Source: a virus. From it: 10,004 nt of DNA. Of the stretch, positions 7,155-8,293 are shown piece after piece. The notes below the pieces were generated by a model. It was not told where the DNA came from. It did not search any database and was given only the letters and a program-made list of their open reading frames with translations. The stretch lies in the UHGV virus genome UHGV-0134101. The stretch is one strand, 5' to 3'. The number at the start of each line of letters is the position of its first letter. The stretch's first letter is position 1. The position numbers and the translations under genes are program-made.

Positions 7155-7276
7155 ATACAAAGCTGCGGCTGGTCTGATCGGCAAGGTGTTTTGGTCGGCG
7201 TATAGTTGGTGATTGGCTATGATTTGTCATTTCGATGGCGGCAAATCAAGCTAAAGCTTAGAATGAAGGTATGAAA

Positions 7277-7855
7277 ATGATTACAGGAATCGAAGCGCTA
7301 GCTTTACAGGCTACAGATATCCTTGCAGCCTCCAGGGCGGCGCAGCAAATAGTTTCCCCACTTGCCAGAGCTAACTCGAGACTGGCACAGTCTGCCATGC
7401 CTGAAAATCCTGATGAAGTTAAGCACGCCTTAGATCGTGCCTCTATTGCGATTGCAGGTGTAGAGCGCAAATTAGTTGAGTGCAATGAAATAGTTAATTC
7501 ATTAAACACACTTTCTGATGAAGATCTTCATTTCACCAATGAGTTTCTCATTGAATTAAAGGTTAGGGCTGAAATGCTGACTGGGCACATAGAGAATTTA
7601 CGCGATGTGTTTTCTCTAGTTGAAACGTCGAGCGCTTGGAAGCCTTACATGCCATTGGTTTATGAAAAAAAACGCAAAGCAATTCGCTCTGTTTCTGATC
7701 TGCGAAATGCATATCTAAACATTGCTCTCCTGGCAGAGCAATTTGTCTCACCCGTGCCGACCGTAAGCAGTAGTGTTGAGGGTAACTCAGAGGAATTTTC
7801 ATCTGCACTCTCCGCATCACGCCAGCTGCTAAAAATCGGCTCGGAGTGGAGATAA
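7277..7855 (+). CDS. Hypothetical protein A of the post-repressor cassette, about 192 aa, predicted largely helical
   Basis: ORF track 7271..7855; the ATG at 7277 has better Shine-Dalgarno spacing (AAGG 7 nt upstream) than the ATG at 7271. Visibly lower GC than the cI gene. No motif recognised. Confidence 0.65.
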   Translation: MITGIEALALQATDILAASRAAQQIVSPLARANSRLAQSAMPENPDEVKHALDRASIAIAGVERKLVECNEIVNSLNTLSDEDLHFTNEFLIELKVRAEMLTGHIENLRDVFSLVETSSAWKPYMPLVYEKKRKAIRSVSDLRNAYLNIALLAEQFVSPVPTVSSSVEGNSEEFSSALSASRQLLKIGSEWR

Positions 7856-8265
7856 TGGCAAGAGTTAGTATCCATTCATCATTAAATAATTCGGCGTTTA
7901 TACAAGGGCTTGCCAGAGAACTATCTCTTTATCTTAACGGCATCTCTTTATCCGGACGCCTTGGAAGAAATGGCGGCTTTGAACGTAATAATTCAGCGCA
8001 AACATCCGGCATCCTCAAAATCCACTTCAAAGCACCAGGAGAAGGTTTTTGGACTGATGCTATGCGACAATCAACCAGAACGAGCAATAACTACATAGTA
8101 TATGCGCGTCACTGGGATAAGGCTGATGCATTTCAAATCATCGCTGTGATTGCACCAGACGCTCACGAAACGGCTGACGCACTCCTGCCCAGGATTATTG
8201 ATATTACGGAACAAGATTTTCACTCGCTAAGTGAGAGTCAAATAGATCGCCTAGAACATTATTAA
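7855..8265 (+). CDS. Hypothetical protein B of the post-repressor cassette, about 136 aa; C-terminal half shows weak RelE/YoeB-like toxin pattern
   Basis: ORF track 7846..8265 starts at a GTG; the ATG at 7855 overlaps the stop of protein A as TAATG. AT-shifted. The segment GEGFWTDAMRQSTRTSNNYIVYARHWDKADAFQIIAVIAPDAHE and the terminal EHY recall the GFW...RLVYAV...LLIAACRYHY region of YoeB/RelE-family toxins; this is a weak pattern-level impression only. Confidence 0.6.
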   Translation: MARVSIHSSLNNSAFIQGLARELSLYLNGISLSGRLGRNGGFERNNSAQTSGILKIHFKAPGEGFWTDAMRQSTRTSNNYIVYARHWDKADAFQIIAVIAPDAHETADALLPRIIDITEQDFHSLSESQIDRLEHY

Positions 8266-8289
8266 CCCGGCCATCGCGCCGGGTTTTTT
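8266..8289. terminator. Rho-independent terminator ending the cI/cassette operon, shared by convergent transcription units
   Basis: Stem CCCGGC (8266-8271) / GCCGGG (8278-8283) with loop CATCGC, followed by TTTTTT (8284-8289). It sits immediately after the stop at 8265 and 4 bp from the stop of the convergent 8294-8503 gene. Confidence 0.85.
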
Positions 8290-8293
8290 GTGC

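Follow-up and report, generated by a model that had tools for sequence, protein, structure and literature searches.

The interval between cI and N is a documented mosaic hotspot which holds rexAB and bstA (PMC8585504). Here we describe the equivalent slot in the UHGV virus genome UHGV-0134101, of which a stretch of 10,004 nucleotides (nt), hereafter called the window, was analyzed. Directly behind the gene for a CI-like repressor, the window carries a cassette of two genes, which we call A (192 amino acids, aa) and B (136 aa). Our results make it probable that this cassette is a toxin-antitoxin module of type II architecture which is carried as exchangeable prophage cargo, with B as the putative toxin and A as its putative antitoxin.

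By position, the cassette resembles rexA-rexB of lambda, since both consist of two genes in the orientation of cI, lie in the slot between cI and OL/pL, and are probably co-transcribed with cI. However, the two pairs share no sequence similarity, and while RexB is a polytopic membrane protein, the cassette encodes none. Its predicted effector is a cytoplasmic RNase-type toxin and not an ion channel. This agrees with a preliminary description of the same sequence, which had seen no likeness to RexA or RexB and no membrane protein. Neither A nor B is linked to them through Pfam, PADLOC or PHROG, and no membrane segment was found in either protein (highest 19-residue Kyte-Doolittle mean 1.19 for A and 0.93 for B). 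BstA of the Salmonella prophage BTP1 is comparable as lysogen-expressed cargo directly behind the repressor with its own Rho-independent terminator. However, BstA is one large protein and comes with a self-immunity element made of DNA, aba, whereas the cassette encodes two proteins and has no homology to it.

By protein family, the closest described system is YafN-YafO of the E. coli dinB operon. Common to both are a toxin of the Pfam family PF13957 with a RelE-like fold, the order antitoxin-toxin and a tight junction between the genes, and by analogy mRNA degradation would be the expected activity. YafO has been shown to degrade mRNA, while its dependence on the ribosome is disputed (PMC8546651), and for PF_YafO toxins in general the antitoxin gene precedes the toxin gene and mRNA is degraded (PMC11980606). 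However, YafN is a 97-aa protein of Phd/YefM type, whereas A is predicted to be an unrelated 192-aa helical bundle, and yafO belongs to the SOS-regulated dinB operon whereas the cassette lies in a prophage immunity region. In a survey from 2011, YafO toxins were partnered by Phd-type antitoxins or by unclassified neighboring genes, and never found on phages (PMC3141249). YafO genes in prophages have later been read as lone toxins (PMC10449497). The HigBA and RelBE-type modules share with the cassette the logic of a toxin held by a protein antitoxin and include the best structural matches of B. They differ in that A has no helix-turn-helix (HTH), ribbon-helix-helix (RHH) or Phd fold, in that the gene order is opposite to that of HigBA, and in Pfam family. 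Members of the RelE superfamily act in defense, and for some an anti-phage role is proven (PMC11980606).

Gene structure and expression signals of the cassette

Both genes are found on the plus strand, A at 7277-7855 and B at 7855-8265, as anticipated by the preliminary description of two co-oriented genes of these lengths behind the repressor. The open reading frame (ORF) of A opens at 7271 or 7277, and the most likely start is ATG 7277, which is conserved across 25 homologues and is preceded by AAGG (7265-7268) 8 nt before it. At the junction (7846-7857), the TAA of A and the ATG of B at 7855 overlap as TAATG (7853-7857), with GGAG as ribosome-binding site for B 5 nt upstream, inside the 3' end of A. 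An identical TAATG-type junction is present in Shimwellia. The cassette is closed by an intrinsic terminator (8264-8291, plus strand), in which TTTTTTG follows a GC-rich hairpin of 8 bp at 8264-8285 (-14.5 kcal/mol, z -2.5). Overlapping genes, an internal GGAG and a single terminator make up the bicistronic layout of type II systems, and the coupling and the strong terminator that had been proposed are both borne out. So is the shift toward AT: the GC content is 44.8% in the cassette, 51.4% in cI and 52.4% in everything to the left of the cassette, and at third codon positions it is 39% in A and 35% in B compared to 51% in cI. Among 178 sliding windows of equal size, the cassette has the sixth lowest GC content.

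In the leader that links the stop codon of cI to A (7155-7276, plus strand), no convincing promoter was found, as had been noted before. A single weak match to 9 of 12 positions, TCGGCA-17-TATAGT, lies at 7178-7206, and promoter-like sites in the region upstream of A are not in excess of those in shuffled sequence. Furthermore, no terminator-grade hairpin was found between cI and A. Because neither a promoter nor an operator of its own is convincing and no terminator follows cI, the cassette probably shares the transcript of cI, which starts at the repressor promoter in the lysogen.

Some other layouts were considered and dropped. The minus-strand ORFs within the cassette (7258-7509, 7563-7820 and 7660-7875) were taken as shadows of A and B. 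A three-gene toxin-antitoxin-chaperone layout is ruled out by the absence of a third gene inside the unit. The idea of an RNA antitoxin, or of a known RNA embedded in the cassette, was abandoned as Rfam gave no match there and tandem repeats are absent.

Protein B and the YafO family

Protein B matches the Pfam profile YafO_toxin (PF13957) with 59.8 bits (gathering threshold 25, E-value 2.9e-16), and the match covers residues 35-120 of B and positions 12-98 of the 101 in the profile. It also matches phrog_1651 (E-value 2e-31), whose function is listed as unknown, and an identical protein in RefSeq is named 'type II toxin-antitoxin system YafO family toxin' by PGAP. The best structural matches of the predicted model are HigB2, HigB1, HigB, YafQ and RelE, with YoeB and BrnT also among them, and the model has the RelE/ParE (BECR) type fold of the YafO family. 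Together, profile and predicted fold place B in the YafO family of the RelE/ParE (BECR-fold) superfamily as a putative endoribonuclease. This substantiates the weak likeness to RelE/YoeB-type toxins that had been suspected earlier. In an alignment of 12 sequences, comprising B of the window, relatives with 27-40% identity and E. coli K-12 YafO, the residues G37, H57, R75, H104 and F122 are invariant. Judged from this conservation, H57, R75 and H104 are candidate catalytic residues.

The preliminary description had called the cassette a candidate undescribed module. This appears to hold for A, which had no match in Pfam, NCBIfam, PADLOC or PDB. It does not hold for B, which belongs to a curated toxin family and already carries a YafO family name in RefSeq, and the term therefore fits only half of the cassette.

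Protein A and its pairing with YafO-type toxins

Protein A had no match in Pfam, NCBIfam, PADLOC or PDB sequences, and a Foldseek search of BFVD with its model returned nothing significant. It is not a YafN-type (Phd/YefM) antitoxin, as the comparison with YafN gave no similarity (E-value 0.19). The AlphaFold2 model is confident (predicted local distance difference test 82.5, predicted template modeling score 0.73) and consists of four long helices spanning residues 4-157. This four-helix bundle (residues 1-157) fits the earlier characterization of A as a large helical protein that differs from a classical antitoxin. The tail, residues 158-192, is modeled with low confidence but is conserved in sequence, with SPVPTVxSSVEG, a short helix and SEW-R, of which W191 is invariant. 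The protein is acidic, with an isoelectric point of 5.3. Across the library and structure searches, confident homology of both proteins to a characterized function outside defense was not found.

The A family is small. Among 5.8 billion proteins it forms 27 clusters at 90% identity, all from Enterobacterales, and an exhaustive search of 1.84 billion representatives with the A profile gave 14 matches at E-values up to 1e-3. More distant relatives with about 20% identity and 184-218 aa share WxP[HY] as an invariant motif, and they carry a Trp at most four residues from the C-terminus. The A-like proteins of phage CUS-3 and of phages with the pair in tail clusters are full-length members of phrog_18235 and phrog_35514, both with function listed as unknown. 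The A protein of the window itself matches phrog_18235 co-linearly with an E-value of 0.058 at best.

The strongest evidence that A and B form one system comes from their pairing. In all 13 loci with close A homologues, the start of B lies no more than a few bases from where A ends, and the identities of the two proteins diverge in parallel (76/68, 63/62, 58/57 and 56/53% for A/B). A-like proteins, down to about 20% identity, are encoded directly 5' of a YafO-like gene in all of the approximately 60 loci examined. The genomic surroundings are unrelated to one another. Besides the E. coli slot behind cI, they include the Chania chromosome, where the genes form a bare two-gene island flanked by cysE and an araC-like gene, tail or baseplate clusters in Pantoea and Shimwellia prophages, and a Photorhabdus island with genes for a type I restriction-modification (R-M) restriction enzyme, a SNIPE/T5orf172 nuclease and an AAA_13 ATPase on its flanks. 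In Klebsiella aerogenes, Xenorhabdus and a contig of the Logan assembly, an A-like protein with about 20% identity is encoded directly 5' of a PF13957 gene, and the pair in the Xenorhabdus chromosome is again a bare two-gene island. Such pairing of two families across unrelated contexts is a property of type II systems.

When IMG/VR was scanned with the alignment of B, 57 loci were obtained, and in about 50 of these the ORF just 5' of the YafO-like gene was detected by hidden Markov models (HMMs) built from A-family alignments, with E-values of 1e-10 to 1e-20 in the group with toxins of 39% identity to B. About 45 IMG/VR phage contigs are counted as carriers of the A-B pair. The exceptions are L072-L075 and L077, which have unrelated partners of about 180 aa, and L071, in which the contig ends at the toxin gene. 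In L077 (3407-4387), a YafO-family toxin and an unrelated 181-aa upstream partner occupy the slot downstream of cI, and in L072 (3484-4465) the partner of about 180 aa starts with a signal-peptide-like segment. Homology of A to these two partners was dropped, as it is undetectable by profile comparison. Among GenBank phages, the pair is found in the P22-like phage CUS-3 of E. coli RS218, where it is located behind the two mnt repressor genes of immI, and in the Flyfo siphovirus Tbat2_3 from a bat-faeces metagenome. The A-like proteins of these two phages belong to phrog_18235 and phrog_35514. Neither megablast with the cassette nor tblastn with A gave a match among GenBank phages. A scan of genome contigs with the A-alignment profile gave a single locus, in Shimwellia.

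Two of these loci carry additional toxin-like genes. Directly 5' of the A-like/YafO-like pair in a Klebsiella aerogenes prophage (L018, 5695-6982) is a gene for a Hok/Gef type I toxin, which places two toxin systems next to each other at a single site of the nin region. In an IMG/VR locus (L054, 2851-3288), a second and weaker YafO-like ORF (HMM E-value 1.7e-9) is found just upstream of the pair.

The two genes also differ in how they decay. While A is under strong purifying selection (ratio of nonsynonymous to synonymous substitution rates at most 0.12), synonymous sites of B were saturated in every pair, such that no ratio could be computed, and B is intact at full length at 51-68% identity. 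In at least two Photorhabdus assemblies, B is frameshifted near residue 75, and in Shimwellia pseudoproteus a TAG replaces the codon of the invariant W66. In both cases A is intact. Independent knock-outs of B only are expected if the second gene encodes a toxin and the first its antidote. Based on these sequence comparisons, we consider A to be probably the antitoxin, of an undescribed family.

While the toxin half of the cassette is known and annotated, the partner family and the pairing of phage-borne 'orphan' YafO toxins appear undescribed in the libraries and literature searched. The so far unannotated A family is now paired with the YafO toxin family, which corrects annotations of lone toxins and, with A as antitoxin, would extend the list of antitoxin folds.

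Cargo exchange behind the repressor

IMG/VR contigs and strain ABWA45 carry the segment from 7140 or 7152 to 8289 at 99% identity and with other flanks. Its carriers encode four different S24 repressors (258, 239, 229 and 213 aa) and differing replication genes, and in these other carriers the right flank is only 75-78% identical. The cassette is thus a discrete exchange unit, i.e., 'moron' cargo in the slot between cI and pL, and its extent nearly coincides with the 7155-8290 given in the preliminary description. It is carried by 9 of 5426 complete E. coli genomes.

The idea that the interval between cI and OL is a hotspot for variable cargo was confirmed by comparison across prophages, since others hold different genes at the same place. 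In phi80-type prophages, the slot contains a single 288-aa DUF7946/DUF7947 protein of phrog_5147, for which the function is listed as unknown (L007, 3124-3990; L008, 3043-3909). In the prophage of E. coli L6-21 (L009, 2680-4088), it contains two overlapping genes, one for a DUF6932 protein that weakly matches a nucleotidyltransferase-like palm, and one for a 310-aa protein without a Pfam match. These two alternative cargos are uncharacterized candidates themselves. With one cassette behind four immunity types and three alternative cargos, the slot is a clean example of cassette exchange.

Both boundaries of the slot can be suggested from these comparisons. On the left, a 65-bp linker behind cI (7148-7212, plus strand), which includes the weak promoter match, is 91% identical to the L6-21 prophage. 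As the linker is common to L6-21 and has other cargo behind it there, it is a candidate boundary or recombination sequence. On the right, phi80 (in DH10B) and an O19:H7 prophage share with the window the 3' end of cI and the flank from 8262 on, terminator included. Because the sequence from 8262 is common to phi80-type prophages with other cargo, the terminator doubles as the right boundary of the slot.

Proposed mechanism and alternative explanations

As a toxin-antitoxin module, the cassette would act through B as a RelE-fold endoribonuclease-type toxin which arrests translation by mRNA degradation. A would be translated first and, through the coupling, in excess, and would sequester B. Its flexible Trp-ending tail may wrap around B and occlude the active site. 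In the lysogen, the cI promoter would drive both genes, and A and B would be kept present during prophage residence because they are transcribed with cI. If synthesis of A halts or A is degraded, free B would then shut down translation. Such a release could be triggered by a superinfecting phage that shuts off host transcription or by loss of the prophage, and the outcome would be an aborted infection or a penalty for curing, respectively. An anti-phage role in abortive infection or exclusion is plausible, and is suggested by the slot, by the mnt-linked copy in CUS-3 and by the defense-island context in Photorhabdus. If the pair does exclude phages, a RelE-superfamily module would join RexAB and BstA as repressor-linked prophage defense.

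Several observations weigh against this interpretation or parts of it. No family in PADLOC-DB v2 matches A or B at E-values up to 1. B is not basic (isoelectric point 6.3), unlike many RelE-type toxins. The BLASTP alignment of B with E. coli K-12 YafO has 31% identity over only 39 residues, and B scores 22.5 bits against the NCBIfam equivalog NF007377, for which the cut-off is 153. By sequence, B is a distant member of the YafO family and not an orthologue of E. coli YafO, and because A is also unrelated to YafN, the cassette is not a YafN-YafO system. Moreover, no DNA-binding domain (HTH, RHH or AbrB-like) was found in A, no inverted repeats were found in 7140-7290, and the DNA upstream of A cannot be aligned between genera beyond the ribosome-binding site, i.e., there is no conserved operator. 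Classical type II autoregulation is therefore not evident; a DNA-binding, autoregulating antitoxin is typical of type II systems and not strictly defining. A conserved promoter or operator upstream of A was likewise dropped as a candidate on account of the unalignable upstream regions and the lack of inverted repeats. The more distant A/B pairs are mostly found in tail-gene clusters and not beside repressors, and thus lysogen expression is no general rule for the family. For the role in defense specifically, pure addiction or prophage retention accounts for the data about equally well.

A purely selfish module, which stabilizes the prophage by killing cells that lose it or the cassette and gives no protection from phages, is a possibility to which we give some credence, short of an even chance. 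The bare islands in the Chania and Xenorhabdus chromosomes point in this direction, the generic moron sites (tail clusters and nin region) fit a self-propagating element, there is no PADLOC model, and repeated decay of the toxin is what one would expect of a dispensable module. However, the E. coli cassette occupies the slot of rexAB and bstA, the CUS-3 pair lies behind mnt, and the Photorhabdus copy sits among R-M, AAA_13 and SNIPE genes, although all of this is compatible with pure addiction as well. The same repeated decay bears on another explanation, in which A is a sensor, activator or partner subunit and the A-B complex is the active form, e.g., an effector set off by a phage protein or, in the lytic program of the phage itself, an RNase plus adaptor. 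Loss of the toxin with A intact, together with gene order and coupling, is the classic signature of an antitoxin-toxin pair, and PF_YafO modules have the antitoxin first (PMC11980606). We therefore find it unlikely that A acts in this way, even though 192 aa far exceeds what is needed to plug a 136-aa toxin and the well-folded, conserved bundle with its invariant WxP[HY] suggests a role beyond neutralization. Many homologous pairs inside late (tail) operons, and the unrelated partners of about 180 aa of other YafO-like toxins, would also fit such a role.

That B has lost its toxicity and the pair is an inert or functionally unrelated moron, hitch-hiking in a recombination hotspot, seems very improbable to us. 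In its favor, B has diverged far from E. coli YafO, conservation of the YafO catalytic residues cannot be strictly scored as these are experimentally undefined, and only the nine E. coli genomes mentioned above carry the cassette. However, A is under strong purifying selection, B retains the family-invariant His, Arg and His which are present in YafO too, independent knock-outs affect B alone, and the cassette has stayed 99% conserved after transfer between four immunity types. Collectively, these results favor a toxin-antitoxin module. Going further, the A-like proteins of roughly 190 aa (the A family, phrog_18235 and phrog_35514) might constitute a phage-borne antitoxin superfamily for YafO-type toxins, with the pair as an abortive-infection system of repressor operons (cI, and mnt in CUS-3) in which A doubles as the sensor that releases the RNase on foreign infection. 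We put this forward tentatively and regard it as doubtful in its full extent. If the superfamily is real, the YafO 'lone toxins' of prophage surveys would be complete modules.

Prophage setting and neighboring features

The window covers the part of a lambdoid E. coli prophage that serves immunity and replication, and 6040-8700 is 100% identical to the chromosomes of E. coli CX21 and related strains. The CI-like repressor gene (6378-7154, plus strand) encodes 258 aa with an S24 LexA-type peptidase domain (Peptidase_S24, E-value 7e-16), and its RefSeq relatives are labeled as S24 family peptidase or LexA family regulator. To its left, all on the minus strand, are a Cro-like gene (6048-6293), a gene in the YdaT/cII position (5475-6017), an O-like initiator gene (4535-5389) and a DnaC-like gene (3678-4550).

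The preliminary description had placed the cassette between OR-like and OL-like operators. What stands of this are clusters of TTAAC/GTTAA half-sites and inverted repeats on both sides, concentrated at 6290-6380 and 8540-8670. On the left, the divergent control region between the Cro-like gene and cI (6294-6377) contains six half-sites and an inverted repeat at 6315-6351. On the right, 8608-8654 holds an OL-like inverted repeat and a rightward pL-like promoter, TTGACT-17-AATAAT, at 8626-8654. A location between candidate OR-like and OL-like operators is thus plausible from the sequence.

Between B and the OL-like region lies a conserved, convergent ORF of 69 aa (8294-8503, minus strand), which was missing from the preliminary description. 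It matches phrog_3975 (function listed as unknown), is identical to WP_000362427.1 of phi80-type prophages, shares the hairpin of the cassette, and forms the constant right-hand backbone flank of the variable slot. Past the pL-like promoter, a region of about 540 nt (8655-9190) has strongly positive AT and GC skew. No convincing plus-strand ORF, no evident N-like gene and no Rfam match were found there. The region may represent an extended leader, RNA of nut or put type, or a small gene missed in annotation.

The genes in the Cro and cII positions (5475-6293, minus strand) match the Pfam families YdaS_toxin and YdaT_toxin. Judged by position, they are lytic regulators and not toxins, a point that has also been made with reference to Jobling 2018 (PMC10449497). 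Within the O-like initiator gene, five inverted-repeat copies of an iteron (TTACCTGATTTGGGTAA and variants, period about 24) are found at 4927-5038, with an AT-rich stretch of short tandem repeats immediately to the left (4860-4928). By analogy with lambda, the iteron cluster is most likely the phage origin. Finally, a short match to bacterial small subunit rRNA at 9635-9681, with 32 bits compared to a gathering score of 50, is probably due to chance or a small fragment.

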